26,673 nucleotides of DNA, taken from NCBI GenBank assembly GCA_014436445.1, contig GCA_014436445.1_4089.1. One strand, given 5' to 3'. The notes beneath the pieces are model-generated. The model had not been told where the DNA came from and ran no database searches. It was given only the letters and a program-made list of their open reading frames with translations. The stretch is from a phage. Below are positions 1,119 through 17,752 of this stretch, piece after piece; positions within the stretch are counted from its first letter, which is position 1, and each line of letters starts with the position of its first letter. Position numbers and translations under genes: made by a program.

Positions 1119-1130
1119 CTCTATGTAAAA

Positions 1131-1158: not shown

Positions 1159-1166
1159 AGTACTTT

Positions 1167-1493
1167 TTACATTTTAATTCCTGGATTCAGGTAGCGGTGA
1201 GATCCATATTCTGGATCGGTTTCGGTCCAGTACTGTAAATCTATAGTACCCTTTGCGTTAATCTTGTCTACCAGCTTATTCATCTTACTGTAGACTACTT
1301 CGCTAGGGATGTAGTGTAATCCTTTATTATAGAAGTAGTGGTTAGCTTCACTGTCATTTAAGATATAGCGTGCACCGTTTGCGGTTTGTGCAACGATGAA
1401 AGAGTATTCTACTTCCCGATCATTACCATCAACAGTAATGCGGTCGAAATTGGTACGGATGAAAGCTTTAACGATAGCGATTGAAGTACTCAT
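1167..1493 (-). CDS. hypothetical protein (108 aa)
   Basis: Track ORF; AGGAGA Shine-Dalgarno; upstream promoter TTGACA, 17 nt, AATAAT at about 1540-1570. Confidence 0.6.
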   Translation of the reverse strand: MSTSIAIVKAFIRTNFDRITVDGNDREVEYSFIVAQTANGARYILNDSEANHYFYNKGLHYIPSEVVYSKMNKLVDKINAKGTIDLQYWTETDPEYGSHRYLNPGIKM

Positions 1494-1593
1494 GGTGAAT
1501 CTCCTAACTTTGTGGGCCGTCGCACCATTGCCGCCCTACGAGATACATTATTGCAGTACTGATATACTTTGTCAATACTTTTTCCATTAAAAT

Positions 1594-1809
1594 TTATTTA
1601 CAGAACTGTAGCCCGACTGTGTTCGGATAGTACACACATCTTTCACGCTTACCGCTAAACGCAGATATCCAGGATAATTTGTATGCCACTGGCTCAGGTG
1701 CAAGAGGATTATTTGAATAATCGAGAACTTTAACAATTAAACGGTCCCCAACATACCAGCCAGTTGACTCTTTGATACGGTCGATAATTTCTTGTTTGGT
1801 TAACGCCAT
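1594..1809 (-). CDS. hypothetical small protein (71 aa)
   Basis: Track ORF 1594..1842 trimmed to the ATG at 1809 (MALTKQEII...); the promoter and leader at 1843-1900 are near-identical to those upstream of 1167..1493. Confidence 0.5.
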   Translation of the reverse strand: MALTKQEIIDRIKESTGWYVGDRLIVKVLDYSNNPLAPEPVAYKLSWISAFSGKRERCVYYPNTVGLQFCK

Positions 1810-2023
1810 TTTATATCTCGCTCTTTTGGAGGTGGGCTGCACTATTGCCGCCCTACGAGATACATTATCGCAGTACTGATATACTTTGTCAATACTTTTT
1901 TTGAAATAGTTTTGAGTACTGGCATTACATCCACCAGCAGATAGTTACTCACCGTTATTAACTATCTTATAGATACTTCTCTGCACCCTGTGGGCTAGTT
2001 TTTGTCTATGCGTATATAATAGC

Positions 2024-2056
2024 AAAGGGACTGACCGGAGTCAATCCCTTTTTTTT
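2024..2056 (-). terminator. intrinsic terminator hairpin that also contains a promoter -35 (composite repeat, copy 1 of 4)
   Basis: GGGACTGACCGGAGTCAATCCC stem-loop flanked by A and T runs directly after the stop of 2068..2268. On the minus strand the hairpin contains TTGACT, followed 17 nt later by TATTAT. Copies at 4283-4312, 7424-7453 and 11120-11148. Confidence 0.55.
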
Positions 2057-2067
2057 ATTCTTTTTTG

Positions 2068-2268
2068 TTAGATGATTCTCCAATCTTCTACCAGGATTTT
2101 AATATACCGTACCAGTGATTCGAGTGATTCCACTTCCCGATAATCGGTAGCCGTTTGCACGGAACAAGTACAGCCGATCAAGCCATTGCCAAGCTCTTTG
2201 ATCTGTACATCGATGCAGTTGGCTTTTGCTTCATTCAGTACTGCAACCAATTCGTTAGCGATTGACAT
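2068..2268 (-). CDS. hypothetical small protein (66 aa)
   Basis: Track ORF; AGGAG Shine-Dalgarno; leader hairpin and promoter at 2288-2340. Confidence 0.6.
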   Translation of the reverse strand: MSIANELVAVLNEAKANCIDVQIKELGNGLIGCTCSVQTATDYREVESLESLVRYIKILVEDWRII

Positions 2269-2356
2269 AATGTTTTACTCCTAAAGGTGCGGGAGAACTA
2301 TTCCCCCGCTCTATGTAAAACATTATACATTATCTTGTAGTACTGTCAAATAGTTT

Positions 2357-2614
2357 TTATGAGATATCTTCGATATAGTCGGCCCATGTCATTTGTTCAG
2401 TACTATCGAGTGCACCAGGATTATTTGGATCAAACCATTCGCCATCCCCTAAGTACATTGCAGCGGATACCGCTTTATAGCCATTATAGGCGTTATTCCA
2501 CTGCATAGCACGATAGATACGGCCTTTGATTGGTGTCTGTACTGGTAATGTTTTATGGTCTTCTACGTAGGCCATAGCTTGAGGATTTACCCGATATTGT
2601 GTGAACTGTTCCAT
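2357..2614 (-). CDS. hypothetical protein (85 aa)
   Basis: Track ORF; AAGGGGAAA Shine-Dalgarno; promoter TTGACA at about 2650-2680. Confidence 0.6.
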   Translation of the reverse strand: MEQFTQYRVNPQAMAYVEDHKTLPVQTPIKGRIYRAMQWNNAYNGYKAVSAAMYLGDGEWFDPNNPGALDSTEQMTWADYIEDIS

Positions 2615-2689
2615 TATGTTTCCCCTTGTAGTTAGTAAAGTTATTACATCAGTACTATCAAGCTATGTCAATAGTACTGAAATAAAACT

Positions 2690-2914
2690 TTAGATTAGAT
2701 TATTGATGCCGTTGATGGTAGACTCGCTTTCTTCTTTCTCCCATTGGCGGTAATACTTCCATGCTTCATGATAGGTGGCGATCAGTTCATCTTTTTGATC
2801 CTGAGTACATGCCAGTACTGAATCACTGTAAGCGGTGTTATAGATAGAATCAAATGATTTCTTCTCTTCTGCCAGGGTAGCTACTTCCCGCATCAGTTCA
2901 TCAAAGTTAGCCAT
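2690..2914 (-). CDS. hypothetical small protein (74 aa)
   Basis: Track ORF 2690..2959 trimmed to the ATG at 2914 (MANFDELM...); the longer form would read through the leader hairpin at 2931-2953. AAGGAG Shine-Dalgarno. Confidence 0.6.
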   Translation of the reverse strand: MANFDELMREVATLAEEKKSFDSIYNTAYSDSVLACTQDQKDELIATYHEAWKYYRQWEKEESESTINGINNLI

Positions 2915-2982
2915 TTTAGTACTCCTTATTAGTGGGGGAGGATATCTCCCCCTATGCAAAACATTATACTTTGTTTTAGTTA

Positions 2983-3246
2983 TTATGCAAGTACTTTTTT
3001 CATATAAACATTGTATTCTACACCGCCGTAACCTTCGCAGATGATATGTTTTGAGTTATCACGTTTGCACATCGTAAAGGCATCGTTGACGTGTTTTGCA
3101 TTTTCCAGGGCAACATCACCGATAGCGGCACATACTGAACTAATAACGATATTCCGCAAAGTACTGGTATCATTAGCGGTCATAGTAGTTTGCAGTACTA
3201 CGTTGTCGTATACGTGTGCATTGATAGTGATTTCGATAGTGTTCAT
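2983..3246 (-). CDS. hypothetical protein (87 aa)
   Basis: Track ORF; AGGAGA Shine-Dalgarno; hairpin leader and TTGCAT/TATAAT promoter at 3266-3330. Confidence 0.6.
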   Translation of the reverse strand: MNTIEITINAHVYDNVVLQTTMTANDTSTLRNIVISSVCAAIGDVALENAKHVNDAFTMCKRDNSKHIICEGYGGVEYNVYMKKVLA

Positions 3247-3334
3247 GGTGTATCTCCTGGACTTGAGGGGAAACCATTTCCCCCCTCTCGATATAAAACA
3301 TTATACGTTAATCTAACTACAATGCAAGTACTTT

Positions 3335-3526
3335 TTAAATTTTATTTCCGATATAGTCCGGCCTATTCTTTTCGGTCATACGCTTTGCTAATGTTTGCAT
3401 ATAGCTTATCGCGTTTAAGGTGTCTTCCTCCAGGGATGAATCAACATAATCAGGATCATTCTTCACCTTGCAATGATTATGATAGCGTAGTACTGCCAGT
3501 ACTTTTTTAACTTCTTCAACTGTCAT
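3335..3526 (-). CDS. hypothetical small protein (63 aa), overlaps the upstream stop by 4 nt
   Basis: Track ORF; start and stop overlap with 3523..3795 suggests translational coupling. Confidence 0.5.
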   Translation of the reverse strand: MTVEEVKKVLAVLRYHNHCKVKNDPDYVDSSLEEDTLNAISYMQTLAKRMTEKNRPDYIGNKI

Positions 3527-3795
3527 AATAAGTATTCCACTTCGTTAGCTTTCAGGTTAGTATCGATCATCAGTGGTTTTTTGTAGTCCACAAAACGATT
3601 AGTTTTCTCGATAGCGAAGCCCATATAATCCAGTTTGCTTACAGTACATTCATTCTTAAAAACTTCTTTCGCGGCATTGATGGCTGATTCAATTGATAAC
3701 CGCCCATCTAAATTAATGTTACCAAATGATCCACCAGCAGAAGTAGGATTACCGTTCATATCTTTAATAATCATAGTAGCGGAGTAGCTGGACAT
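3523..3795 (-). CDS. hypothetical protein (90 aa), first gene of a two-gene operon
   Basis: Track ORF; leader hairpin GGGGAGAACTATTCTCCCC and TTGACA/TATAAT promoter at 3816-3880. Confidence 0.6.
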   Translation of the reverse strand: MSSYSATMIIKDMNGNPTSAGGSFGNINLDGRLSIESAINAAKEVFKNECTVSKLDYMGFAIEKTNRFVDYKKPLMIDTNLKANEVEYLL

Positions 3796-3878
3796 AATTT
3801 TGTTTCCTTTTATTGTGGGGAGAACTATTCTCCCCTTGATGTAAACTATTATACAGTACTGATATACTTTGTCAATAC

Positions 3879-4100
3879 TTAATTACGTTTAAAATGATAT
3901 GTACCGTTATCATCCTGTACGCCCCATACTGATTTACCATCAACACCAGTGAAGCCGGATTGTAATTCAATATGGAAACCATTATTATCAACTACAAAAA
4001 CTTTTTTATTTTCATCCCGATAACATTGATATTCTGAATCAACATTAAAGGCCGCATCATTCAGAAGATTGGAAGCGTAAATGCAAGTCATTGTAGTCAT
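3879..4100 (-). CDS. hypothetical small protein (73 aa)
   Basis: Track ORF 3879..4175 trimmed to the ATG at 4100, which has an AAGGAA Shine-Dalgarno; the longer form overlaps the leader hairpin at 4118-4140. Confidence 0.55.
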   Translation of the reverse strand: MTTMTCIYASNLLNDAAFNVDSEYQCYRDENKKVFVVDNNGFHIELQSGFTGVDGKSVWGVQDDNGTYHFKRN

Positions 4101-4321
4101 GATTTTATTCCTTATTGCCAGGGAGAACCGTTTCCCCCTCTCGATATAAAACATTATACTTGATTCTAAGTACAATGCAAGTACTTTTTATCAAATAGTT
4201 TTCAGTACTGAATACTTATATAATATATACATTTATGCACCCTGTGGGTCAGTGAGCTATCTCTCAATGAATATATAATAGCAAAGGGACTGACCGGAGT
4301 CAATCCCTTTTTTAATCTTTT

Positions 4322-4906
4322 TTATCGTGTTATAGTTACGGCTTTTACATCACGCTTTTTATAGTACTGATTCCAGATATTGCGGGTTAAACCGTAATCA
4401 AGTACTTTAATAAGGCCGTTGCGATCCTGGCCGATATTCTGTTTTCTGATATCTCTTATCGTCAGTGTTGATAAGGTATCATCAACGTGTTGTAGTGCAT
4501 CAGCAAAGCGGTGCTGGCGTTCAATGGCATTACGTTTAATATTGTACTTTAATTCGTTGCACGCGTTAACGTGCTTTACACTGCCTTTACTTGCAGTACT
4601 CAACCGATCCATAACAATAAACATATTATCAGGATCGCTTAAATGCATATGCACTTTAGCGAAGAACTGTTTCAACTGAGGGCGGTCATAGTCTAAAAAA
4701 TTCCATACCCTACATTCTGTTTCATTTTGTTCTACACCCGCATCACAATTCGCGACCTTGATCACTAACCGATCATTTAAAGCGAATACAATACGGGAAG
4801 AACCCGCACCGATGATCTCCAGACCAGCTAACCGACAAGCTGAAAGGATCTCTTTGTTGGTTTCCATTTCTGACAGTGTACGGATGAATTTAGTATAATT
4901 ACGCAT
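4322..4906 (-). CDS. minimal protein-kinase-like protein (194 aa)
   Basis: Track ORF trimmed to the ATG at 4906 (AAGGAG Shine-Dalgarno). Motifs in order: glycine-rich loop IIGAGSSRIVF, beta3 lysine LVIKV, catalytic-loop-like IRDIRKQNIG (compare HRDLKPENI), DYG about 20 residues later (compare DFG). The protein ends soon after DYG. Confidence 0.55.
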   Translation of the reverse strand: MRNYTKFIRTLSEMETNKEILSACRLAGLEIIGAGSSRIVFALNDRLVIKVANCDAGVEQNETECRVWNFLDYDRPQLKQFFAKVHMHLSDPDNMFIVMDRLSTASKGSVKHVNACNELKYNIKRNAIERQHRFADALQHVDDTLSTLTIRDIRKQNIGQDRNGLIKVLDYGLTRNIWNQYYKKRDVKAVTITR

Positions 4907-4937
4907 TGTTTTATCTCCTTGAGTTAATGAAACTATA

Positions 4938-5180
4938 TTACAGTACTTTACTATCAATGGCAACTACTTTTTTAACACTTACAGCGTGAATCACTTCCTT
5001 AGTGTTTTTAGTACTGAATACTTTCGCTGTTCCTTGTTCTACTGCAATGCGATAACGACCGTTAACATCAACCATATTAATAAAGTCCGGTGTACTAAAC
5101 CGAGTAGTACGGCATTTCAGTACTGTTAACAGTTCCACCAGCGATGTAGTTTCTTTGATACGTTTTTCTAAAGTAATCAT
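4938..5180 (-). CDS. hypothetical protein (80 aa)
   Basis: Track ORF; second promoter class (TTGACAGTACTCAAATGTTTTAGTACTATG...) at 5195-5240, repeated at 5470-5520. Confidence 0.55.
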   Translation of the reverse strand: MITLEKRIKETTSLVELLTVLKCRTTRFSTPDFINMVDVNGRYRIAVEQGTAKVFSTKNTKEVIHAVSVKKVVAIDSKVL

Positions 5181-5238
5181 TTTGTTTTCCCCCGTGTTGG
5201 TATAGATACATAGTACTAAAACATTTGAGTACTGTCAA

Positions 5239-5457
5239 TTAGATAATATTATATTTCTTAAAATAAAATGCGTCCTGTGTTGGTTGATACTCGATACCGT
5301 TCCCGTTATTGACTTCAACTAATAAACCTTTGTCAATTAGTTTTTTAATAGTACGATACCCCTGTTGAAAATTGGTAAAATGTGAATCATTACGAAAGGT
5401 ATAACCGTGCTTAACTGCTTCATCAATAGTTTTCTTTTCGATTTTAGATAATTTCAT
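5239..5457 (-). CDS. hypothetical small protein (72 aa), possibly a winged-helix DNA-binding protein
   Basis: Track ORF trimmed to the ATG at 5457 (MKLSKIEKKTIDEAVKHGYTF...); the TIKKLIDKGLLVEV segment resembles a winged-helix recognition helix and wing. Weak. Confidence 0.45.
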   Translation of the reverse strand: MKLSKIEKKTIDEAVKHGYTFRNDSHFTNFQQGYRTIKKLIDKGLLVEVNNGNGIEYQPTQDAFYFKKYNII

Positions 5458-5513
5458 TTTGTTTCTCTCTCTGTGTTGGTATAGATACATAATACTAAAA
5501 CAATTGAGTACTG

Positions 5514-5768
5514 TCAACGTGATATTAGTTTTATTTTTTTATTGTATTGTTGGTGTTCATATAGATTAATTTTTCCAGTACTCTCGATCACTATTCTATT
5601 GTTAGTGTCTACGTCGATTACACGTAGTTTCCCGTTGCTTAACTTCCTAGGCAATAGACTACCATTAATAAACTCATTAGCAAGCTGTACGGCCTTTGTG
5701 ATGATTCTCTGTGGGGCTTTATAGTGTACCCGTAATACATTATCGTTTGATAGTTGAACCTTAATCAT
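5514..5768 (-). CDS. hypothetical protein (84 aa)
   Basis: Track ORF; preceded by the hairpin at 5783-5807. Confidence 0.5.
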   Translation of the reverse strand: MIKVQLSNDNVLRVHYKAPQRIITKAVQLANEFINGSLLPRKLSNGKLRVIDVDTNNRIVIESTGKINLYEHQQYNKKIKLISR

Positions 5769-5782
5769 TTTGTTTATCCTAT

Positions 5783-5807
5783 AAAAAAGGCGGGAACAGT
5801 TCCCGCC
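5783..5807 (-). terminator. intrinsic terminator or attenuator hairpin
   Basis: GGCGGGAACAGTTCCCGCC followed on the minus strand by TTTTTTAT, between the stop of 5831..6226 and the start of 5514..5768. Confidence 0.5.
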
Positions 5808-5830
5808 GTGTTGTTAGTACTGCAAAGTTA

Positions 5831-6226
5831 TTAGATAACCTGGCGGCGTTTACTGTATACTGTTACACGGTTTCCTTTACGGTCATGACGGATCTCTTTC
5901 TGGTTACGAATCAGTTCACTTGGACGCTTAAGGTTTGCCAGGTGATCCGCGTGAGTCCATGCATTTGCGTTAACTGTAACTTCAATATCAGAACCTTTCA
6001 AAAAGTCATCTTGAGCGTTCAGTACTTCAGCCAGTTCTTGAGCTTGCTTTAGTTCTGCTGCTGTAAGTACAGGCTCAGGTGAATTCACAATATCAGAGAT
6101 CTCTTTGAACTGTACCGCCCAGCGTTGTCCTTTCGGTGCATCTTTGCCCATGTCTTTAAATGTTTCACCTTCTTCACGGGCAACGATGCGAGCTTGTTCA
6201 CGGGTAGCGAAGAATTTAGTAATCAT
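5831..6226 (-). CDS. hypothetical protein (131 aa), paralog of 17753..18019
   Basis: Track ORF trimmed to the ATG at 6226 (AGGATG Shine-Dalgarno). Shares FATRExARI.AR..G.TFKDMG...G.RWAV and HDRKGNRVTVYS with 17753..18019, and the two promoter regions are near-identical. Confidence 0.6.
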   Translation of the reverse strand: MITKFFATREQARIVAREEGETFKDMGKDAPKGQRWAVQFKEISDIVNSPEPVLTAAELKQAQELAEVLNAQDDFLKGSDIEVTVNANAWTHADHLANLKRPSELIRNQKEIRHDRKGNRVTVYSKRRQVI

Positions 6227-6325
6227 GGTGTACATCCTATTAGTTAAGTTAATTAGTACTACAAGTTAGAGTCTATTATAAAGTACTATCTGGGCAATGT
6301 CAAATAGTACTTTAAATGGATTCTA

Positions 6326-6649
6326 TTACATGTCTTTCTTACGTTTTACATCGTAGTAACGAACTGTAATTTCTTTGTTGATCTCTTCCTCGATGCGGTG
6401 AATAACTTTTTCTTTCGGGTTGAAACCTATAACGGTTTCTTTAATGATCTCCAAGCCCGTGTATTCGCCTTGTGTACCGTAACCGTAAGTAAAGGTTTCA
6501 TGTCCCAGGTCTTCCCAGCGGTCACCAATCAATGCAGACACGTAGCATGAGTGGTAAGTATTGCCGTGGCTATCAGTCCACCGATTAACTTTAATGTCAA
6601 AGGAAGTTACAATTTTCATTTCTACTTTCTGGGTAAGGATCATAGTCAT
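6326..6649 (-). CDS. hypothetical protein (107 aa), paralog of 12703..13047
   Basis: Track ORF; shared motifs RW...GNTY.S, Y.YGYG and a C-terminal DVKRKKD(M/L); leader hairpin at 6671-6695. Confidence 0.6.
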   Translation of the reverse strand: MTMILTQKVEMKIVTSFDIKVNRWTDSHGNTYHSCYVSALIGDRWEDLGHETFTYGYGTQGEYTGLEIIKETVIGFNPKEKVIHRIEEEINKEITVRYYDVKRKKDM

Positions 6650-6736
6650 TTTAATTTCTCTCTTTTTGTTAGGAGGGGAACCATTCCCCTCACTTGATGT
6701 AAACTATTATACAGTACTAAGATACTTTGTCAATAC

Positions 6737-6871
6737 TTATTTGTTTTCTTTTCGTAATTTCTTTTCAGCTTCAACTACATTACGATTTGTGCAAACCACT
6801 TCATCGGATAAATCTAACTTCCAGCCAGCCAGGGGATTGGTTGCTTTTTTAGTGTTGTTTGCTGCTTTCAT
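6737..6871 (-). CDS. hypothetical small protein (44 aa; MKAANNTKKATNPLAGWKLDLSDEVVCTNRNVVEAEKKLRKENK)
   Basis: Not in the track (under 60 aa). Own promoter TTGACAATAGTTTTTAGTACTGTATAAT at 6890-6935 and an AAGGAAACATC Shine-Dalgarno before the ATG. Confidence 0.4.
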   Translation of the reverse strand: MKAANNTKKATNPLAGWKLDLSDEVVCTNRNVVEAEKKLRKENK

Positions 6872-6938
6872 GATGTTTCCTTATTAATTAAGATGTAAAC
6901 TATTATACAGTACTAAAAACTATTGTCAAACTATTTTA

Positions 6939-7139
6939 TCAAATTGTTTCCCATTTCATGTTACCCGCTTTACGCTGTGCAACAGGAATAAACATGTTAT
7001 TAATGTTACTAATATAACCGACCTGTAAGTCACGCTGTGAACCATACGCCCGACTTGCTGCATTTTTAGCACCGCGTTCTGATTTATAAACGCCGCTGGA
7101 TACTGTAAAGCCTACTACACCGAAAGTAAAATGTTTCAT
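6939..7139 (-). CDS. hypothetical small protein (66 aa)
   Basis: Track ORF; AAAGAGGAA Shine-Dalgarno; promoter TTGACA, 16 nt, TATAAT at 7160-7195. Confidence 0.55.
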   Translation of the reverse strand: MKHFTFGVVGFTVSSGVYKSERGAKNAASRAYGSQRDLQVGYISNINNMFIPVAQRKAGNMKWETI

Positions 7140-7205
7140 TTTGTATTCCTCTTTGTGGTTTATGTAAGTATTATACTCGTTTAATTTCTATTGTCAAACT
7201 ATTTT

Positions 7206-7281
7206 ATCAGGGGAGGTTTTCGTATGTCTTACTCCTGGACTACTTAACGGGGAGTTACTTGTTTCGTTCCCCGTCCTGATG
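7206..7281 (-). ncRNA. candidate structured RNA or leader element, copy 1 (copy 2 at 17522-17597)
   Basis: A ~76-nt element bounded by the inverted termini ATCAGG...CCTGAT, with an internal CGGGGA...TCCCCG stem, transcribed from the TTGCAT/TATAAT promoter at about 7283-7320. It differs from the 17522-17597 copy at only 4 positions. Confidence 0.35.
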
Positions 7282-7462
7282 TAAAACATTATACTTGATT
7301 CTAAGTACAATGCAAGTACTTTTTAAAAATAGTTTTCAGTACTTGATAGTACTAGCCACCAGCATATAATAGATACATTTATGCACCCTGTGGGCTGATT
7401 TGTTTCTATGCGTATATAATAGCAAAGGGACTGACCGGAGTCAATCCCTTTTTTAAATCTTT

Positions 7463-7612
7463 TTAAACTTGTTTTGGGTTGCGATATGTGATAGCGTTCG
7501 GGTACATTTGTTTAATGTTATTCCATGCCTGGTTAACATTGTAACCACTTGATCGAATCAGTTGGTTACTACCGACACCTTGAAACACTACTTCAAATAA
7601 GAATTCTTTCAT
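7463..7612 (-). CDS. hypothetical small protein (49 aa)
   Basis: Not in the track. GAGGTG Shine-Dalgarno; followed by the terminator repeat at 7424-7453. Confidence 0.4.
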   Translation of the reverse strand: MKEFLFEVVFQGVGSNQLIRSSGYNVNQAWNNIKQMYPNAITYRNPKQV

Positions 7613-7782
7613 GCTTTCACCTCGCTATCTGCTTTGCCTTTACGCCAGGCCGTTGCTAATTGTTCGCGTTGCCATAAGTCGAGTGATACGTAAAGTTTTG
7701 CATTATCACCCTTCGGATATTCGCCAGTAGTGCCTAACCGATAAAACAGATCTTTCAGTACTGATAATTCTACTTGGATCAT
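7609..7782 (-). CDS. hypothetical small protein (57 aa)
   Basis: Not in the track. AGGAG Shine-Dalgarno; ATGA overlap with the downstream ORF. Confidence 0.4.
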   Translation of the reverse strand: MIQVELSVLKDLFYRLGTTGEYPKGDNAKLYVSLDLWQREQLATAWRKGKADSEVKA

Positions 7783-7871
7783 TGTATTACTCCTGATTGT
7801 GTTAGTACTTCTACGATGGCATGAATGATCATAAGTACAGCTAACACAACAATCATCGGATTCATTTGCAT
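7779..7871 (-). CDS. 30-aa hydrophobic peptide (MQMNPMIVVLAVLMIIHAIVEVLTQSGVIQ), predicted single-pass membrane peptide
   Basis: Not in the track. AAGGAG Shine-Dalgarno 8 nt before the ATG; about 20 consecutive hydrophobic residues; its stop overlaps the next start (ATGA). Confidence 0.4.
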   Translation of the reverse strand: MQMNPMIVVLAVLMIIHAIVEVLTQSGVIQ

Positions 7872-7888
7872 AAGCTGTACTCCTTCTA

Positions 7889-8101
7889 TTAATCTTTCAG
7901 CCAATGATCTTGAATGAATTTTTCACAGAATCCCTGTTTCATAGATTCTAACAGGCGTTCACGGTGAGCGGCGGCATATTGCTCAGTACTATGCGTTACG
8001 CCAGGTTGATAACGTGAAACACCGTCTGGTCCGATATATTGAACATCCCACGGTTTTTCGTTAGTATCAGACCATTTACGAACGATTAGTTGACCTTGCA
8101 T
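7889..8101 (-). CDS. hypothetical small protein (70 aa), first gene of a four-gene micro-operon
   Basis: Track ORF; AAGAGGAAAG Shine-Dalgarno; leader hairpin GGGGAGAATCATTTCTCCCC and promoter at 8110-8180. Confidence 0.6.
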   Translation of the reverse strand: MQGQLIVRKWSDTNEKPWDVQYIGPDGVSRYQPGVTHSTEQYAAAHRERLLESMKQGFCEKFIQDHWLKD

Positions 8102-8186
8102 GTTTCTTTCCTCTTAGTGGGGAGAATCATTTCTCCCCTTCATGTAAACTATTATACAGTACTACGATGCTTTGTCAAATACTTTT

Positions 8187-8375
8187 TTAAAGTTTATGAA
8201 TCAATTCTTTATCTAAGCGATAGCGAACATTATTGATTGTAACTGCATTGTTTTTAATGCTACGCTGTACAGGTCCACCAGCAATAACAAACGTTGCCTT
8301 ATTGCCCCGAACGATGATAGCACTTCCAGGATTACCAAAATCATCTTGTACTAAAATACTTGATAAGTTTTGCAT
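8187..8375 (-). CDS. hypothetical small protein (62 aa)
   Basis: Track ORF; leader hairpin and promoter at 8390-8450. Confidence 0.55.
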   Translation of the reverse strand: MQNLSSILVQDDFGNPGSAIIVRGNKATFVIAGGPVQRSIKNNAVTINNVRYRLDKELIHKL

Positions 8376-8454
8376 TTGTCTTTCCTTGTAGTGGGGAGAA
8401 CTATTCTCCCCTTCATGTAAACTATTATACAGTACTTAAAACTAAATGCAAGTA

Positions 8455-8811
8455 CTAGGATAAAATCATTATAGGATATTCACAGTTAATCAGTACTTCA
8501 AAACCAAAACTTTCATACCATTCTTTAAGATTAAACTCGTTATCTTCTCCCGTATCGCATTCTAAGATGATACAATCTGAATCATCGGCGGCATCAATAA
8601 AGGCATTCATTAATTCAGTACCTTCACCGTTACCGCGATTATCGGGATCAACATAAAGAGAATCAATAAACGCTACACGATCATAATCAAGATCCGGTGC
8701 AACAATGCCACGTTTAACAAACCAGTACTGCAATTGTGCTACTTTGCCTTGTACTTGATAGCCAGTGATCTCACCATTGTCTGTAGTACGCGTGATATGT
8801 TGTATACCCAT
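8455..8811 (-). CDS. small protein with a GNAT acetyltransferase-like motif (118 aa)
   Basis: The segment LYVDPDNRGNGEGTELMNAF resembles GNAT motif A (the acetyl-CoA-binding R/Q-x-x-G-x-G/A loop), but the protein is shorter than a typical GNAT. GAGGA Shine-Dalgarno; TTGACA/TATAAT promoter at 8835-8870. Confidence 0.5.
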   Translation of the reverse strand: MGIQHITRTTDNGEITGYQVQGKVAQLQYWFVKRGIVAPDLDYDRVAFIDSLYVDPDNRGNGEGTELMNAFIDAADDSDCIILECDTGEDNEFNLKEWYESFGFEVLINCEYPIMILS

Positions 8812-8874
8812 GATTTCAATCCTCAGTTAAGATATAAAATATTATACACTAACTAACAGCACTGTCAATACTTT

Positions 8875-9132
8875 TTATCTCATAGATCTATGCCAACAAT
8901 TACGGGGATTGCGTTTGAATATGCTATCATGATCAGCCTGGCAAGTGATGCAGTACTTACACCCCTTAACGGCCAGGCGGCGATTCTCAGGGATTTTATC
9001 GCCGCAGTCGAGGCAATGTATCAGTGATTCTATTTGTGCGTTAATTTGCGTTCTAGCGTGGTTTACAGCGGCCTGAATCACTGCGTTAATCTCGTCTTGC
9101 TCGGCCCCGTCCTTCGCGAATCCAACAGCCAT
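8875..9132 (-). CDS. TraR/DksA-family C4 zinc-finger protein (85 aa)
   Basis: CLDCGDKIPENRRLAVKGCKYCITCQ matches the TraR/DksA C-x2-C-x17-C-x2-C zinc finger with the conserved IPE.RR core. GAGGT Shine-Dalgarno. Confidence 0.75.
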   Translation of the reverse strand: MAVGFAKDGAEQDEINAVIQAAVNHARTQINAQIESLIHCLDCGDKIPENRRLAVKGCKYCITCQADHDSIFKRNPRNCWHRSMR

Positions 9133-9295
9133 TATTTTAACCTCATTATAAAAATACTATAGTACTGTAATGCTACAATAATACTACTAGTACTGATTTT
9201 ATTCAAACCGTATGATACTACATATTCCCCAGCATTACCACGAATGGTAACGCCTTTGTACTTTCTATATAATTTCAACTACGTTTATTGCCTTT

Positions 9296-9366
9296 GATCA
9301 AGATTTGATCAGAATTATACGCCTTATGCTAAATTGATCCAGTACTTTTTTGATCATTTATTGATC
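9296..9366. repeat. cluster of five TTGATC(A) repeats (five GATC sites in 71 bp)
   Basis: GATC at 9296, 9307, 9336, 9352 and 9363, each within a TTGATC heptamer context; roughly 20-fold denser than expected at this base composition. Confidence 0.6.
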
Positions 9367-9461
9367 GATATTATATAGTTACATTTGTGCACCCTATGGG
9401 TTAGTGACGTTCTCGTCTTGATGTAAGTATTATGCTAGTACTGGCATAATTTGTCAATAGA

Positions 9462-9659
9462 TTATTTTAACTTTTTTCTGTCATTGATTAATGCTTTCAG
9501 TACTATACTAATGATTTGCAATGATTCATCAATGACTATAAAATTATTTTCTTTCATTAGATGATAGTTACCATTGATTGTATATTCTAAGGAGTACTGT
9601 TTACGTTTAATTTTTGATAATGTTTCTATTTGTTTTTGTACTGATTTCATGCTAATCAT
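9462..9659 (-). CDS. hypothetical small lysine-rich protein (65 aa), weakly supported
   Basis: Track ORF with no convincing Shine-Dalgarno or promoter; very AT-rich. Confidence 0.3.
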   Translation of the reverse strand: MISMKSVQKQIETLSKIKRKQYSLEYTINGNYHLMKENNFIVIDESLQIISIVLKALINDRKKLK

Positions 9660-9764
9660 TGTTAAACGTCCTGTAACGCATTCTAACGAGTTAAACGGTT
9701 TAGTACTGGCATTGTATAGGGTAAATGATTATAGCCCACCAGCGTTAACCAGTGGGCTATAATC

Positions 9765-9908
9765 TTACATCTTGCGGATAATCTTAACAGTATCTTTCAC
9801 CGATTTACCGTCTTGCTGGCATTGCTCGATCATCGCGTATTGTTCTGCGGTCAGATCCTCGCCAGTTTTTGCCAGTACTGCGTCGATGAATGAATCCAGT
9901 GCGATCAT
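9765..9908 (-). CDS. hypothetical small protein (47 aa; MIALDSFIDAVLAKTGEDLTAEQYAMIEQCQQDGKSVKDTVKIIRKM)
   Basis: Not in the track. Promoter TTGACA, 16 nt, TATAAT at about 9940-9985; stop followed by hairpin AGCCCAC...GTGGGCT at 9731-9758. Confidence 0.4.
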   Translation of the reverse strand: MIALDSFIDAVLAKTGEDLTAEQYAMIEQCQQDGKSVKDTVKIIRKM

Positions 9909-10007
9909 TTTATTTCTCTCTTAGGTTAAGTTAACTACTGTTGATAAAAGTTATTATACAGTACTATCAAACATTGTCAATAGATTTAATAGTACTGGTA
10001 ATATATT

Positions 10008-10187
10008 TTAGCGGTAATCGTCGTATGCTTTATTAACCTGGCGAATGTAACTTTCAAAGGCTTCGTCTACCGTTTCATACTCCCGAACATAATCACCATA
10101 GGAAACTACATACATCCCTTTTTGATCTTCAAACGTCATGATGATAGAATCCAGGCCGATGATTTCAGTTTTTGCGATAATAGCCAT
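10008..10187 (-). CDS. hypothetical small protein (59 aa)
   Basis: Track ORF 10008..10259 trimmed to the ATG at 10187 (AAGGAA Shine-Dalgarno); the extension would cover the promoter (TTGACA, 17 nt, CATAAT) and leader. Confidence 0.5.
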   Translation of the reverse strand: MAIIAKTEIIGLDSIIMTFEDQKGMYVVSYGDYVREYETVDEAFESYIRQVNKAYDDYR

Positions 10188-10278
10188 TTTAGTATTCCTT
10201 AAATTAATATGCGTTGTCTTGATAAAAGTTATTATGCCAGTACTATCAAACGTTGTCAATAGTACTGTGATAATATTT

Positions 10279-10491
10279 TTAGTTAATGATAGTCAGTGTA
10301 AAATTGTAATCCCCTGCCTGGTATAGTACTTTATCGCCGAACGTGCCAACACGTTTCATATTGCAATAGATACCCATAACATTTTTTACATCTTTGATAT
10401 TCCGAACGCCAGTGATATCCTTGTTGAAATTTTCATGATCAGAAAATAAAACTTGTTTTGCATTTTTCAGTACAGTGCGGATATTAGCCAT
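10279..10491 (-). CDS. hypothetical small protein (70 aa)
   Basis: Track ORF; leader hairpin GGGGAGAACTATTCTCCCC and TTGACA/TATAAT promoter at 10511-10575. Confidence 0.6.
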   Translation of the reverse strand: MANIRTVLKNAKQVLFSDHENFNKDITGVRNIKDVKNVMGIYCNMKRVGTFGDKVLYQAGDYNFTLTIIN

Positions 10492-10586
10492 TTTGTTTTC
10501 TCTCTCTGTTAGTGGGGAGAACTATTCTCCCCTTGATGTAAACTATTATACAGTACTAAAAACTATTGTCAAACTATTTTTTAATA

Positions 10587-10928
10587 TTATTCGAAATCTT
10601 CTGGACCGGACTGATAATCATCTTCACCGTATGCACTTTCTAACTTCTCGCCAGTATGATCATCAGTTAGTGAGTCATCCTCATAGTTCACGTCTACGCC
10701 CGTGATGTAAAACTGGCTATCGTCTGGATCATTGAAATTAATTTTCTGAATGTTTACAATAACTGTATTGATACCCAGGACACAGCCATCAGCCGTTACA
10801 AAGTACTGATATTTTTCACATCCACCACTATTGAAACCGTAATTGATTTCGGCCCGACCATCATTTAAACGCAGTGCCTGAGCGATGATTTCGTTTTCAA
10901 AGTTAGATTGAGCAATTGCAATAGTCAT
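10587..10928 (-). CDS. hypothetical protein with a strongly acidic C-terminal tail (113 aa)
   Basis: Track ORF; C-terminal ~40 residues are rich in D/E (YEDDSLTDDHTGEKLESAYGEDDYQSGPEDFE); leader hairpin and promoter at 10947-11010. Confidence 0.6.
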   Translation of the reverse strand: MTIAIAQSNFENEIIAQALRLNDGRAEINYGFNSGGCEKYQYFVTADGCVLGINTVIVNIQKINFNDPDDSQFYITGVDVNYEDDSLTDDHTGEKLESAYGEDDYQSGPEDFE

Positions 10929-11157
10929 GATTCGTTTCCTTATTACCAGGGGAAACCGTTTCCCCTTGCGATGTAAAACATTATACGCCTATTGAGATAG
11001 TATGCAAGTACTTTTTATCAAATACTTTAAAATAGTTTTCTGTACTCAATCATTATACAATAGATACACTCCTGCACCCTGTGGGCTAGTGAGCTATCTC
11101 TCAATGAATATATAATAGCAAAATGGCTGACCGAAGTCAACCACTTTTTCATTTATT

Positions 11158-11286
11158 TTTAGCTTTCAGAATCGCCGCCTTTCGCGTCATGCCTTGCTTG
11201 ATGTACTCCTTTACTTTCGCTTTACGTGCTTTCGCTTTATCTGCTTTCGTTTTAGGAGTACTGTAAATTAAACCGTTAGGATTCAT
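11158..11286 (-). CDS. hypothetical very basic small protein (42 aa; MNPNGLIYSTPKTKADKAKARKAKVKEYIKQGMTRKAAILKA)
   Basis: Not in the track. GGTGA Shine-Dalgarno; lysine- and arginine-rich; followed by the terminator repeat at 11120-11148. Confidence 0.35.
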
Positions 11287-11376
11287 TTAAATCACCATAA
11301 AGAATAGATAGGTTACTAACAATGCCGCGATCAATGCACCGACCAGGGCCGAACTGTAATAAGCTAATGATTTCAT
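11287..11376 (-). CDS. 29-aa hydrophobic peptide (MKSLAYYSSALVGALIAALLVTYLFFMVI), predicted membrane peptide
   Basis: Not in the track. ATGA overlap with the upstream gene; continuous hydrophobic stretch; stop abuts the next ATG. Confidence 0.4.
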   Translation of the reverse strand: MKSLAYYSSALVGALIAALLVTYLFFMVI

Positions 11377-11525
11377 TTTTTAGCCTGAAAGTAATGTTTA
11401 ATTTGTGCGGCGGTCAGTGCACAATTACGCAGGAAGTTTTCTGTATAACTCCTACGAGTACTGAAAGAAAATTGACCTTTGCCGTTGCCGATAGTAACAT
11501 CAAACCGAGCGTTGTATTGTTTCAT
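11373..11525 (-). CDS. hypothetical small protein (50 aa)
   Basis: Track ORF 11373..11555 trimmed to the ATG at 11525 (AGGAG Shine-Dalgarno) downstream of the leader hairpin at 11543-11565. Confidence 0.5.
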   Translation of the reverse strand: MKQYNARFDVTIGNGKGQFSFSTRRSYTENFLRNCALTAAQIKHYFQAKK

Positions 11526-11608
11526 TTTGATTCTCCTAGTATCGGGGAGAACCATTCCCCCCCCCTCTATGTAAACAATTATACAGTACTGAAAACTAAT
11601 TGCAAGTA

Positions 11609-11851
11609 TTATTTTAAACTTTGTGCGACTAATTTCGCACGGTCAATCATATACTGCCATTTTTGGATCTCTTCTGGCAGAAAACGATATTCACCAATCA
11701 CAATAGTGATACACTTTTCAGCCTGGTCAATGTATGTAGTATCAATCTCAACCTGAACGGGTACACGTTCGCCGTATTCAGTACCAGGGACAATGCAATC
11801 ATTATCATAAGTAACCGTAAGTGCGGTATCTTTAATTAAAATAGTTTCCAT
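11609..11851 (-). CDS. hypothetical protein (80 aa)
   Basis: Track ORF 11609..11902 trimmed to the ATG at 11851 (GAGGAAAG Shine-Dalgarno); leader hairpin GCGGGAACTATTCCCGC at 11870-11888. Confidence 0.55.
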   Translation of the reverse strand: METILIKDTALTVTYDNDCIVPGTEYGERVPVQVEIDTTYIDQAEKCITIVIGEYRFLPEEIQKWQYMIDRAKLVAQSLK

Positions 11852-11919
11852 TATTCTTTCCTCGTTATAGGCGGGAACTATTCCCGCTCTCGATGTAAAC
11901 AATTATACAGTACTAAAAA

Positions 11920-12129
11920 CTAATTGCAAGTATTATTTTCTAAAAAATGTTTGTATGCTTCATCAACCACTCTTTCGATAACATACGCTAACGGCACGTA
12001 TCCAACTACATGACTACAATAAAAAGGACTACGATTAGAATCATCGTATGCAAATACTTTTTCAGGATCTGCATCAATCACATACATATTAACCTTTAAG
12101 ATGTCGATCTTATCCTGTACAGTAAGCAT
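11920..12129 (-). CDS. hypothetical small protein (69 aa)
   Basis: Track ORF 11920..12207 trimmed to the ATG at 12129, one nucleotide after the stop of 12131..12301 (coupled). Confidence 0.45.
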   Translation of the reverse strand: MLTVQDKIDILKVNMYVIDADPEKVFAYDDSNRSPFYCSHVVGYVPLAYVIERVVDEAYKHFLENNTCN

Positions 12130-12130
12130 A

Positions 12131-12301
12131 TTACGCCGCCTTATCAGTACTGGCAACCGGACGGATACGGGCCATTTCCTGGGCTTGTTCCACACTGTAA
12201 CGCTCATAAAGGCGGCATTCTTCCGGTGTTAGCATTGCATCAATACGTTTCATTGGTTTAATGATGCTTTCAACTTCATTTAGTACTTGATTAACATTCA
12301 T
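12131..12301 (-). CDS. hypothetical small protein (56 aa)
   Basis: Track ORF 12131..12334 trimmed to the ATG at 12301 (GAGGA Shine-Dalgarno). Confidence 0.45.
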   Translation of the reverse strand: MNVNQVLNEVESIIKPMKRIDAMLTPEECRLYERYSVEQAQEMARIRPVASTDKAA

Positions 12302-12352
12302 AGTATTATCCTCAAAATTAGCGGCCCAAATCAACCGCTAACGTTGTTTTGA

Positions 12353-12622
12353 TTAATAGGTGTATGGTTGACGCTCAAACAATGATTGCACGTTGTACGC
12401 CCCGCTAATGGGCTTCGCTGGTAAATCAATTTTATATTGTTCACGCTTAAAGATAATAAAACGGCAATTGTTTTTAACATCAAAATTGATTGAACGTTCC
12501 AGGAGTTTACCATCGTGCACAAATACAAGATAACCGCTCGCTACTTGTTTTGTAGTACTGGTTGCAACCATAGACCGCCGAACATGTGTACCTGCATCGA
12601 TTAAAGTACTGATATTTTTCAT
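12353..12622 (-). CDS. hypothetical protein (89 aa)
   Basis: Track ORF; AAGAGGAA Shine-Dalgarno. Confidence 0.55.
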   Translation of the reverse strand: MKNISTLIDAGTHVRRSMVATSTTKQVASGYLVFVHDGKLLERSINFDVKNNCRFIIFKREQYKIDLPAKPISGAYNVQSLFERQPYTY

Positions 12623-12702
12623 TATACGTTCCTCTTAAGTTAATTTAATTTCTTTCCCCTATGCAGACACTATATCAAAGTATCTGCATAAAGTAAAGCT
12701 AA

Positions 12703-13047
12703 TTAAAGATCTTTTTTGCGTTTAACATCACTAACAGAACTATAAACAGTGATATTATTATCACGGCAAAAACGGGAAAGATAAGAACCGCGTAAAAACT
12801 CTTTACCTTCCATATTAATAACCTTGCTAAATTCTTCCATTGCTACAGTGTCAAAATGATCCCCGTATCCATATTGGAACGGCACGTTTACTACTTCAAT
12901 AAAATTACCATCAATTTCTACGTCTACACTTAAAGAGAAATAAGTGTTACCATATGAAGCCTGGAACCAACGCCGAGCGGCAATATGTACAACTTCAACA
13001 GAAGACAGGTTGATATTTTGTGCTGAGATAGTGTTGATGTTAGCCAT
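12703..13047 (-). CDS. hypothetical protein (114 aa), paralog of 6326..6649
   Basis: Track ORF; family motifs as for 6326..6649; promoter of the TTGACA, 17 nt, CATAAT class inside the 13042-13138 repeat. Confidence 0.6.
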   Translation of the reverse strand: MANINTISAQNINLSSVEVVHIAARRWFQASYGNTYFSLSVDVEIDGNFIEVVNVPFQYGYGDHFDTVAMEEFSKVINMEGKEFLRGSYLSRFCRDNNITVYSSVSDVKRKKDL

Positions 13048-13138
13048 TTTTTGTTTCCTCTTAGTTGTCTTGATAAAATCTATTATGCCAGTACTATCAA
13101 ACTATGTCAATAGTACTGTGATAATAATTTTACTTACT
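13042..13138. repeat. ~96-bp direct repeat, copy A (copy B at 13337-13432)
   Basis: Near-identical promoter, leader and first-codon cassette (CCATTTTTTGTTTCCTCTTAGTTGTCTTGATAAAATCTATTATGCCAGTACTATCAA...) flanking gene 13130..13342; the copies differ only at about 2-3 positions. Confidence 0.7.
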
Positions 13139-13342
13139 TTGCTTTGATGCTTTATGTTGTGCAACTGCCATCACTACATCAGCACGAACAAAGTTAGCAA
13201 CCGTATCAGTATAATATTTGATTGCATCGTCAATATCTGCGAACATCCGATACATTCCGCACCATGATACTTTATAACCCGCTTTCACTTGTTCCAGTTT
13301 AACCAGTGAATTGTTTACTTTGATTTTTGTAATGATAGCCAT
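13130..13342 (-). CDS. hypothetical small protein (70 aa)
   Basis: Track ORF; Shine-Dalgarno and promoter lie within repeat copy B. Confidence 0.55.
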   Translation of the reverse strand: MAIITKIKVNNSLVKLEQVKAGYKVSWCGMYRMFADIDDAIKYYTDTVANFVRADVVMAVAQHKASKQSK

Positions 13343-14860: not shown

Positions 14861-15055
14861 TTTATAAATCCTCAATTAAAGTTTAAGTTAGTGTATCAAA
14901 GTTTTATTGACGTGTCCAGTTTTTCATTCGACTTACTGGCGGTCTACTTAGTGTTCCCCGTCTTGATGTAATACATTCTACGCTTTTCCCTGGTAATGTC
15001 AACTACTTTTTTAAAACTATTTTCAAAGTATACCAGTACTACAATACTACAAAAA

Positions 15056-15650: not shown

Positions 15651-15651
15651 A

Positions 15652-17453: not shown

Positions 17454-17521
17454 TTTGTAACCCTCATTCAGTGGTTGATGTAAGTATTATACTTGTTTAC
17501 TTTCTATTGTCAAACTATTTT

Positions 17522-17597
17522 ATCAGGGGAGTTTTTCGTAAGTCTTACTCCTGGACTACTTAACAGGGAGTTACTTATTTCGTTCCCCGTCCTGATG
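17522..17597 (-). ncRNA. candidate structured RNA or leader element, copy 2
   Basis: Differs from the 7206-7281 copy at only 4 positions; same flanking promoters. Confidence 0.35.
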
Positions 17598-17752
17598 TAA
17601 AACATTATACGCCTTTAAACATAGTTGGCAAGTACTTTTTGAAAATAGTTTTTAGTACTTTCATATAGATACACTCCCGCACCCTATGGGCTATCGCCTA
17701 GTGTCCGGCTTGTAAGTATTATCTCACTAAGCCGGATAACTGTCAAGTACTT

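Follow-up and report, generated by a model that had tools for sequence, protein, structure and literature searches.

Positions 7206-7281 of a 26,673-nucleotide (nt) stretch of phage DNA (contig GCA_014436445.1_4089.1 of assembly GCA_014436445.1; the whole stretch is called the window below) raise the question of what a short element, kept nearly unchanged at two places and in front of unrelated genes, might do. A first-pass annotation made from the sequence alone had noticed two such ~76-nt elements with four differences between them, and had suggested a cis-regulatory RNA or a small RNA (sRNA) gene. We found that the element is the DNA template of a folded minus-strand RNA, the first ~75 nt of the transcript predicted to start at promoter P1. 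The conservation seen earlier is real but is not confined to one duplicated module, since the element is the long form of a pseudoknot family that includes the spacer between the A1 and A2 promoters of phage T7. On balance, we favour a leader RNA close to its promoter, which a host factor (possibly RNA polymerase) would recognise, over a stand-alone sRNA gene, a miniature inverted-repeat transposable element (MITE) or the remnant of a duplication.

The duplicated element is the template of a structured leader RNA

The DNA of the window belongs to a 121Q/PBECO4-like (Asteriusvirus-type) jumbo coliphage and makes up its early region, in the terminal repeat; the best matches of the window (121Q, PBECO4 and phAPEC6) were 98% identical. 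The corresponding site in a related record whose ends are annotated falls within a direct terminal repeat of 21.5 kb; by transfer of positions from this record, the minus strand of the window matches genes that run inward from the left end of the genome. The region contains dozens of small genes on the minus strand, each with a sigma70-like promoter and most with a GGGGAGAAnnnTTCTCCCC hairpin in the transcribed leader.

Alignment of 7206-7281 with 17522-17597 confirmed that exactly 4 of the 76 bases differ. The repeat as a whole spans 140 nt (7155-7294 and 17471-17610, 95% identical; repeat family D13), and beyond it the -35/UP region of P1 matches again in both copies. The genes flanking the two copies are unrelated, with 13 of 40 bases identical in the adjoining coding part. 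As the first-pass annotation had described, each copy lies between two consensus promoters, P1 and P2, both of which we place on the minus strand, and the genes behind them (6939-7139 and 16842-17453) are real minus-strand open reading frames (ORFs) assigned to different, unrelated PHROG families. P1 of copy 1 belongs to promoter family D1, which has 28 copies in the window. Its start was deduced from that of T7 A1, where the distance from the -10 hexamer is likewise 7 nt and the start context is the same (A|UCGAGAGGG versus A|UCAGGACGGGG). P2 of copy 1 is predicted to transcribe gene 6939-7139 (ATG at 7139) without the element.

The minimum free energy fold of the minus-strand RNA (-19.9 kcal/mol, z = -2.2) is a three-way arrangement of a closing helix (P0), which buries the 5' end, and two hairpins, H1 and H2. 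The inverted termini ATCAGG...CCTGAT and the internal stem CGGGGA...TCCCCG reported for the element were both present and both paired in this fold. By comparison, the plus-strand fold was no better than that of shuffled sequence (z = -0.95 and -1.3). The minus-strand structure accommodates each of the four differences between the copies: two fall in loops, one turns a G-C pair of H1 into G.U in copy 2, and one adds a U-A pair to H2 in copy 2. The G.U pair in H1 of copy 2 would be an A.C mismatch on the plus strand, and throughout the family G.U pairs were confined to the transcribed strand (GU 11 and UG 2 among the H2 pairs). This helix-preserving, strand-asymmetric pattern argues for an RNA-level feature rather than a duplex-DNA site for a protein.

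Three points were absent from the first-pass annotation: the functional strand (minus), the pseudoknot core, and a third, shorter copy at ~14909-14967, which has no H1. The predicted starts of the three transcripts (7280, 17596 and 14967) are followed by AUCAGGACGGGG or AUCAAGACGGGG. Downstream of copy 3 a plain leader extends to the ATG at 14863 of a 161-aa gene (phrog_27871), with no second promoter. The tandem-promoter setting is therefore common without being obligatory, as a copy in phage EJP2 also lacks the second promoter. No terminator was found after the element in the window: the long copies run directly into the UP element/-35 region of P2 and copy 3 into the mRNA leader. Of the two proposals made earlier, the conserved, structured RNA-level leader was borne out, whereas nothing pointed to a discrete sRNA gene of 80-100 nt; the element has its own predicted promoter but no intrinsic terminator, and a 3' end might be made by processing.

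A pseudoknot core is supported by covariation

The three window copies share a core with related sequences, UAAGUA-GNC-(1-2 nt)-[H2 5' strand]-(A)UAA-GN'C-nnAnGAAAAn-[H2 3' strand], and all three fit the core patterns with 0 mismatches. The GNC just 3' of UAAGUA pairs, as helix S1, with the GN'C located within the 16-nt loop of H2, a hairpin of 4-6 bp. Because S1 interleaves with H2, the two together make an H-type pseudoknot with a UAA junction and a 10-nt A-rich strand (nnAnGAAAAn). A covariance model of the core recovered exactly three copies in the window (7249-7208, 54 bits, E = 8e-13; 17565-17524, 50 bits; 14953-14912, 52 bits), these scores being those of sequences that were part of the seed alignment; the next best match reached 7.6 bits. 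A weak match at 20461-20493 was rejected as a fourth copy, as it has UAAGUAGGCAG but not the pseudoknot loop.

The first-pass annotation had named covariation across related phages as a check, and this gave strong support from both related and unrelated phages. Covariation was counted for H2 and the three-base helix S1 on an alignment (alignment A1) of 33 distinct cores. Standard pairs occupied 95.8% of the pair cells, compared with 15-38% when the 3' partners were slid by 1-3 columns, and none of 500 shuffles reached the observed paired fraction or covariation score. The middle pair of S1 (11-24) was AU in 22 cores, UA in 6, CG in 3 and GC in 1, with a single mismatch. Double compensatory changes were found in four of the five H2 pairs, for example CCAG/CUGG, CUUG/CAAG, CCUG/CAGG and GGAG/CUCC, and H2 was recovered independently by RNAalifold. 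The window itself contributes two states of each helix: UA in S1 with GGAG/CUCC in H2 from the long forms, AU with CCAG/CUGG from the short form. A relaxed pattern in which S1 was left free retrieved no additional T7-like sequences.

The elements surrounding the core are more variable. H1 stands directly 5' of UAAGUAG in 33 of 46 distinct sequences, and its complementary stem occurs among them in 15 different versions. Except in the T7 forms, the first nucleotides of the transcript are paired with the stretch that immediately follows H2, in a register that varies by lineage (AUCAGG/CCUGAU, AUCAA/UUGAU, GACGG/CCGUC, GCGACG/CGUUGC and CAACGAA/UUCGUUG). The inverted termini of the long form are thus one of several closing helices; they are invariant within the long form and provide no covariation evidence there. 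By contrast, the loop nucleotides AAGUAG, UAAG and A.GAAAA are invariant. These bases suggest recognition by a macromolecule or a defined tertiary fold.

A group of sequences from Nitrososphaeraceae (ammonia-oxidising archaea) fitted the search pattern by chance, with neither phage nor promoter context, and showed T/A or C/G at the two free positions (exceptions C/A and A/A). These matches, from soil metagenomes and Nitrososphaeraceae metagenome-assembled genomes (L014, L025, L028-L031, L036, L038, L045, L047, L113, L115, L118, L128 and L135), were left out of the family. Two-state 'covariation' can arise outside the family, as it does in this group.

The spacer between T7 promoters A1 and A2 carries the same motif

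In phage T7 the motif occupies 535-588 (+38 to +91 of the A1 transcript, which starts at 498) and ends four bases before the -35 hexamer of A2. Motif and setting correspond to those of the jumbo phage. In T7 the order of parts is a strong host-polymerase promoter, an A|UCGA..GGG start, a hairpin, UAAGUAGAC, H2 with the loop (A)UAAGUC..ACGAAAAA, and then at once the next promoter. The A1 start at 498 is followed by AUCGAGAGGG, and the first transcribed bases are alike in T7 (AUCGAGAGGGACAC), Erwinia jumbo phage Hallingskeid (AUCGAACGGGGCAACAC) and window copy 3 (AUCAAGACGGGGAACAC). The T7 form also differs in several respects. An extra 5' hairpin stands ahead of the T7 motif, the closing helix is missing, H1 is a CCGG hairpin of 4 bp instead of the ACGGGGA/UCCCCGU of the jumbo phage, and the loop contains one extra nucleotide. 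T7 has one copy per genome and the jumbo phage three per terminal repeat; all copies in the window sit in the 21.5-kb repeat and are directed inward, as in T7. Judged by sequence and predicted structure, the P1-element-P2 module of the window is the counterpart of A1-element-A2 in T7, by homology and not by mere analogy. Among 26 distinct T7-group leaders, the core was the most conserved block of the alignment, above the promoter hexamers.

Nothing is annotated between A1 and A2 in the T7 record. Full-text and keyword literature searches, which did not extend to the older subscription literature, found this T7 segment only as a transcription template or as a guide or CRISPR interference target and never as a described element; the papers on phAPEC6 and CBB do not mention it either. 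The family is apparently undescribed, while structured early-leader RNAs of phages are already known as a kind. RNase III separates the T7 leader from the gene 0.3 mRNA by cutting at R0.3, a site which is not annotated in the record used.

Downstream of A3 in T7 (L049, 813-825), GCTCTTTAACAA within CGCTCTTTAACAA matches the 3' twelve bases of the boxA consensus of ribosomal RNA (rrn) operons. Some relatives of T7 also have CGCTCTTTAACAA in their downstream part. Some T7-like metagenomic contigs (L076 and the L064/L106 type) have the pseudoknot motif followed directly by boxA, with no promoters between them. No rrn-type boxA was found in the jumbo-phage window.

The motif is shared by unrelated phages of enterobacteria

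Both long copies were found by BLAST in all ~38 Asteriusvirus genomes, and the short form is kept in ~36 of them. The element was also present, at 87-99% identity and again between two promoters, in seven unrelated ~140-kb phages: A73, W70, A7_1 and A5-4 of the Vequintavirinae, and the Justusliebigvirus phages EmilieFrey, outra and muut. At the locus where A73 has the long form, its relatives LTH01 and UPEC06 have a shorter related sequence instead. Variants of the short form were found in EJP2 and Hallingskeid, and pattern scans of metagenomes and IMG/VR returned further variants, with the core also in T7-like phages. A 63-nt T7 query matched 494 phage records by BLAST, at one place each, and those listed were all T7-like, from Escherichia, Klebsiella, Salmonella, Yersinia, Enterobacter, Citrobacter, Serratia, Pantoea and other hosts. 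No copy was detected in 5,426 complete E. coli genomes; among genome contigs there was no enterobacterial copy, the matches coming from unrelated taxa, mostly the Nitrososphaeraceae group.

Wherever it was found, the motif was promoter-proximal, on the transcribed strand and ~20-55 nt from the start of a sigma70-type early promoter (a predicted start in the case of the window), and it was always accompanied by an A|UC(G/A)A..GGG initial transcribed sequence. The proteins encoded downstream fell into six different PHROGs of unknown function, and Pfam gave nothing significant. Since the downstream genes differ in this way, and since A73 and LTH01 have the long and the short form at the same locus, the motif is independent of the gene that follows. 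Its distribution suggests that it spread horizontally among four unrelated groups of lytic phages of enterobacteria (T7-, rV5-, phi92- and RaK2-like).

Rfam 15 gave no match at the gathering threshold anywhere in the window. At E <= 10, positions 7100-7480 returned a single chance-level match to Lnt (16.2 bits against a gathering threshold of 55, E = 7.4), and nothing overlapped the motif in T7 480-930. A transfer RNA or transfer-messenger RNA was rejected, as ARAGORN found 0 genes in the window and copy 2 does not retain the cloverleaf-like fold seen on the plus strand of copy 1. Hammerhead and other small ribozymes were rejected as well: the order of the core does not fit and Rfam gave no match.

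A leader RNA that may address a host factor

The promoter-proximal position, the constant initial sequence, the independence from the downstream gene and the separation from the mRNA in T7 together lead us to infer that the motif is an aptamer for a host component, and not a translational operator of the next gene. The partner is probably a host component because few if any early proteins are common to the phage groups concerned, all of which infect enterobacteria, the only hosts whose phages have the motif. In T7, RNase III cuts the leader off, which makes a role in translation or stability of the downstream mRNA unlikely and leaves a co-transcriptional role or one for the released leader.

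One of the closest likenesses is to the put sites of phage HK022 (putL and putR). putL is an RNA of ~70 nt with two stem-loops, one of them with a base triplex; it is encoded immediately behind an early promoter and targets host RNA polymerase without the help of phage proteins (PMC9378689). The motif is comparable in size, promoter-proximal position and modular architecture, the three respects in which the two were compared; binding of polymerase and antitermination are features of put. The two differ in that no sequence similarity between them is apparent, put is not called a pseudoknot in PMC9378689, and no -10-like pause element is recognisable in the present motif.

By analogy with put, the single most likely mechanism, which we hold tentatively and with considerable doubt, would be as follows. 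The nascent pseudoknot would fold on emerging from host RNA polymerase and bind the polymerase or an elongation or termination factor. Such binding would help the polymerase to elongate the first early transcripts from the entering genome end without interruption (anti-pausing, anti-Rho). P2 would add further, unmodified transcripts of the adjacent gene.

Several observations weigh against recognition by a host factor, or against its put-like form. The start sites in the window are predicted from sequence and not mapped. S1 has only 3 bp with a single variable (middle) pair, and S1 and H2, which we take to form at the same time, could alternate instead. Part of the sequences were retrieved by exact patterns that fixed the invariant positions; the covarying positions had been left free. 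Comparison with Rfam, which included no direct alignment to put, revealed no sequence or family similarity to put or to any other known RNA polymerase-binding RNA. In T7 only the A1 transcript carries the motif, although polymerases starting at A2 and A3 transcribe the same genes. T7 A1 transcripts end in the normal way at the early terminator, and mutants of T7 from which the A2-A3 region is deleted are still viable; strong put-type antitermination and essentiality are both disfavoured by these properties. Finally, rV5-like and phi92-like phages rarely have the motif (9 records), so that for them it is dispensable.

Alternative explanations

The alternative that best survives, and which we consider possible though unlikely, is a decoy or sponge acting in trans: within minutes of the onset of infection, the highly expressed, processed-off leader (cut by RNase III at R0.3 in T7) would titrate either an RNA-binding protein of the host or a defence factor that is guided by RNA or cleaves it. 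The invariant loop nucleotides, which suggest specific recognition, would suit such a role, as would the independence from the downstream gene and the lack of a host copy that would argue for a housekeeping role. Horizontal spread among four unrelated lytic groups is typical of accessory anti-host functions, and a single copy is enough per T7-like genome. A decoy would need neither the strict tie to a transcription start nor the conserved initial sequence, however, and in the jumbo phage there is no terminator or recognisable processing site around the element. No candidate target was identified, and nothing like the known antitoxin or CRISPR-repeat mimics was found in Rfam.

It is improbable, in our judgement, that the element is purely a stabiliser of the 5' end, in which the closing helix and compact fold shield the triphosphorylated end from RppH and RNase E in the manner of the simple GGGGAGAAnnnUUCUCCCC hairpins after other early promoters. 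Such hairpins stand at the same position after most other promoters of the window (families D2, D4, D7 and D9), the first transcript nucleotides of all non-T7 forms pair with the segment just after the pseudoknot, and T7-like phages have a 5' hairpin of their own ahead of the motif. Stabilisation would not need a pseudoknot and invariant loops kept from jumbo phages to T7, and the T7 motif begins only at +38, behind another hairpin and split from the mRNA by RNase III.

A ligand-sensing riboswitch, in which a pseudoknot with an A-rich strand would bind a small molecule and tune read-through or translation, is very unlikely. The architecture does recall the preQ1-I, SAM-II and guanidine-III aptamers, which are likewise compact H-type pseudoknots with an A-rich strand able to line a helix groove. 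Unlike these, the motif matched no Rfam riboswitch model even at E <= 10 and has no expression platform; in most copies a promoter comes next, not a terminator or Shine-Dalgarno sequence. Its topology, with the loop pairing to an upstream strand, is the mirror image of preQ1-I, and the downstream genes are unrelated and without assigned function.

There is at best a slim chance that the element acts as DNA, either as a MITE bounded by ATCAGG/CCTGAT or as an operator for a DNA-binding regulator of P1 or P2. The terminal inverted repeats, the position between two promoters and the sporadic occurrence in rV5-like and phi92-like phages, at up to 98.8% identity to a jumbo-phage copy, could be read in this way. 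No target-site duplication was seen (TATTTT|...|GTAAAA), the place and orientation relative to the promoter start are constant, other family members lack these inverted termini, and neither the rest of the window nor host genomes or bacterial genome contigs contain further copies. The alternative allele at the A73/LTH01 locus (also in UPEC06) is a short form and not an empty site. Covarying stems with G.U on one strand only are also unlike a protein-binding DNA site. A related proposal, that the A-rich loop serves as the UP element of P2 or A2, was rejected, given that the next -35 follows at anything from 4 to >20 nt and that P2 is missing from two copies.

That the element is a non-functional remnant, a recently duplicated or transferred promoter cassette with decayed leader, Shine-Dalgarno sequence and start codon (AGGAG-6 nt-AUA/UUA), we regard as barely credible. 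The hairpin-11 nt-AGGAG-6 nt-AUA layout does mimic the promoter-hairpin-Shine-Dalgarno-ATG cassettes of the window, and as cassettes are exchanged between these phage groups at 84-94% identity, high identity alone is unremarkable. Yet compensatory changes have preserved three helices in hundreds of genomes, AGGAG is just one version of a covarying H2 stem (others being CCAG, CUUG and CCUG), both long copies are retained throughout Asteriusvirus, and the core is the best conserved block of T7-group leaders.

A plus-strand RNA or peptide has next to no likelihood: copy 1 does contain a mini-ORF with a good Shine-Dalgarno sequence and start (GGAGG-7 nt-ATG TCT TAC TCC TGG ACT ACT TAA, MSYSWTT) and muut keeps an in-frame GTG (MPYSWAT), but copy 2 has AAG for ATG, no plus-strand promoter lies upstream, the plus-strand fold resembles shuffled sequence and turns G.U pairs into A.C, and the short and T7 forms have no such ORF.

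Relation to other phage leaders and promoter cassettes

The leader of T4 gene 32 also has an H-type pseudoknot in a phage 5' leader, where it is a protein recognition site. That pseudoknot is tied to one gene and to the gene's own product, whereas the present motif precedes unrelated genes, in T7 is split from the mRNA, and has no evident likeness in sequence to the gene 32 leader.

In T4-like phages, PeSL (promoter-early stem-loop) cassettes consist of a stem-loop upstream of an early promoter and acting as a terminator (PMC2839356, PMC4122927). The window resembles them in being full of repeated sigma70-like promoters with AT-rich upstream regions, of GGGG...CCCC hairpins and of small ORFans. 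With 28 promoter copies in 26.7 kb, and with the module kept and the downstream gene replaced in most relatives, it shows the modularity of PeSL, and its cassettes are common to the window phage and Vequintavirinae. Promoter-leader cassettes therefore appear to be exchanged within and between phage groups in a PeSL-like manner. The position is different: the hairpins and the element of the window lie downstream of the -10 hexamer, in the transcribed leader, and have no U-tract. The PeSL description contains no counterpart of the pseudoknot core.

Other features of the early region

Coordinates of the element, its promoters and the other repeats are collected in Table 1. Nearly every early promoter on the minus strand of window positions 1100-18900 has a GGGGAGAAnnnUUCUCCCC-type hairpin 4-6 nt past the predicted start, ahead of the ribosome-binding site (D2, D4, D7 and D9). 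Identical promoter-hairpin cassettes occur in Vequintavirinae and Justusliebigvirus phages; they are PeSL-like except that the hairpin is downstream of the promoter.

The ATAGATACAnnnnnGCACCCTGTGGGCT repeat family (D11/D12/D15) stands directly upstream of both P1 promoters of the duplicated element. Ahead of it, at 7343-7370, is a plus-strand promoter (TTGATA-16-TATAAT), and behind it, at 7424-7456, a bidirectional terminator hairpin (AAAGGGA...UCCCUUUUUU); it is a candidate for a plus-strand sRNA of ~75 nt, convergent with the minus-strand early genes.

Chi sites of E. coli (GCTGGTGG) are found 10 times in 26.7 kb, compared with 0.32 expected, and nine of the ten are on the minus strand. Several are just upstream of early promoters, and ttGCTGGTGGc likewise precedes the homologous promoters in metagenomic relatives and in Hallingskeid. 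These sites may protect the terminal-repeat DNA against RecBCD.

The 161-aa gene behind copy 3 (14378-14863, minus strand; phrog_27871) seems, from inspection of translated 5' ends by eye, to have N-terminally similar counterparts behind short forms in Hallingskeid and in the metagenomic jumbo-phage contigs L016, L018 and L041. RaK2-like phages may thus have it as a conserved immediate-early gene.

Repeats with a period of 8 nt (TCTAGCCG/TTTAGCCG-like; D10) form an array, accompanied by the dispersed families D17 and D20, at 19581-19724 and 20900-23800. By coordinate transfer from the related record, these repeats are near the expected physical genome end or the boundary of the terminal repeat, and they might be packaging or entry-related signals.

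Table 1 Positions of the leader RNA copies, their predicted promoters and other repeated features in the window
Feature	Position	Strand	Details
Promoter P1, copy 1	7288..7315	-	-35 TTGCAT 7315-7310, 16-nt spacer, -10 TATAAT 7293-7288; predicted start A7280
Leader RNA copy 1, long form	7206..7280	-	Minimum free energy fold, covariance model, covariation on alignment A1
Copy 1 closing helix P0	7280-7275 / 7211-7206	-	AUCAGG/CCUGAU
Copy 1 hairpin H1	7274-7268 / 7253-7247	-	ACGGGGA/UCCCCGU
Copy 1 UAAGUAGUC	7246-7238	-	
Copy 1 pseudoknot stem S1	7240-7238 / 7228-7226	-	GUC/GAC
Copy 1 stem H2	7235-7232 / 7215-7212	-	GGAG/CUCC
Copy 1 A-rich loop	7225-7216	-	
Promoter P2, copy 1	7170..7197	-	TTGACA 7197-7192, 16-nt spacer, TATAAT 7175-7170; 12/12 consensus match
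Promoter P1, copy 2	17604..17631	-	-35 TTGCCA 17631-17626, -10 TATAAT 17609-17604; predicted start A17596
Leader RNA copy 2, long form	17522..17596	-	Anatomy as copy 1, shifted +10316
Promoter P2, copy 2	17486..17513	-	TTGACA-16-TATAAT, upstream of gene 16842-17453
Promoter of copy 3	14975..15002	-	TTGACA 15002-14997, 16-nt spacer, TAGAAT 14980-14975; read from sequence
Leader RNA copy 3, short form without H1	14909..14967	-	Predicted start 14967
Copy 3 closing helix P0	14962-14959 / 14912-14909	-	GACG/CGUC
Copy 3 UAAGUAGAC	14950-14942	-	
Copy 3 pseudoknot stem S1	14944-14942 / 14932-14930	-	
Copy 3 stem H2	14939-14936 / 14919-14916	-	CCAG/CUGG
GGGGAGAAnnnUUCUCCCC-type leader hairpins, examples	4121-4137, 10515-10533, 15893-15911	-	
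ATAGATACAnnnnnGCACCCTGTGGGCT repeat family (D11/D12/D15)	7343-7456	+	Copies 1969, 4223, 9375, 11060, 17665 (+); inverted 15567-15607, 19376-19413
Chi sites	1931, 3731, 5135, 7356, 8275, 9736, 14242, 19045, 19892 (-); 19904 (+)		

Implications for early phage transcription

It may be, and we propose this with some reserve, that these sequences represent a previously unrecognised class of phage leader RNA: a compact pseudoknot aptamer, horizontally shared among T7-, rV5-, phi92- and RaK2-like phages, which binds a host machine in the first seconds of infection. The machine would be RNA polymerase, one of its elongation or termination factors, or a defence or RNA-decay protein. For annotation, this is a new RNA family without an Rfam entry, and in several hundred phage genomes it marks the immediate-early promoter.

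If the motif is functional, a structured RNA has been hidden in the promoter-proximal region of T7 A1, a standard transcription template, and T7 itself still holds an uncharacterised functional RNA between A1 and A2. The early programmes of 40-kb podoviruses and 350-kb jumbo myoviruses would then be linked, and early-promoter/leader cassettes would, besides genes, pass between unrelated lytic phages. T7, in which genetics is easy, offers with the 3-bp pseudoknot stem a testable handle on how phages that depend on host polymerase secure their first transcripts or evade RNA-level responses of the host.

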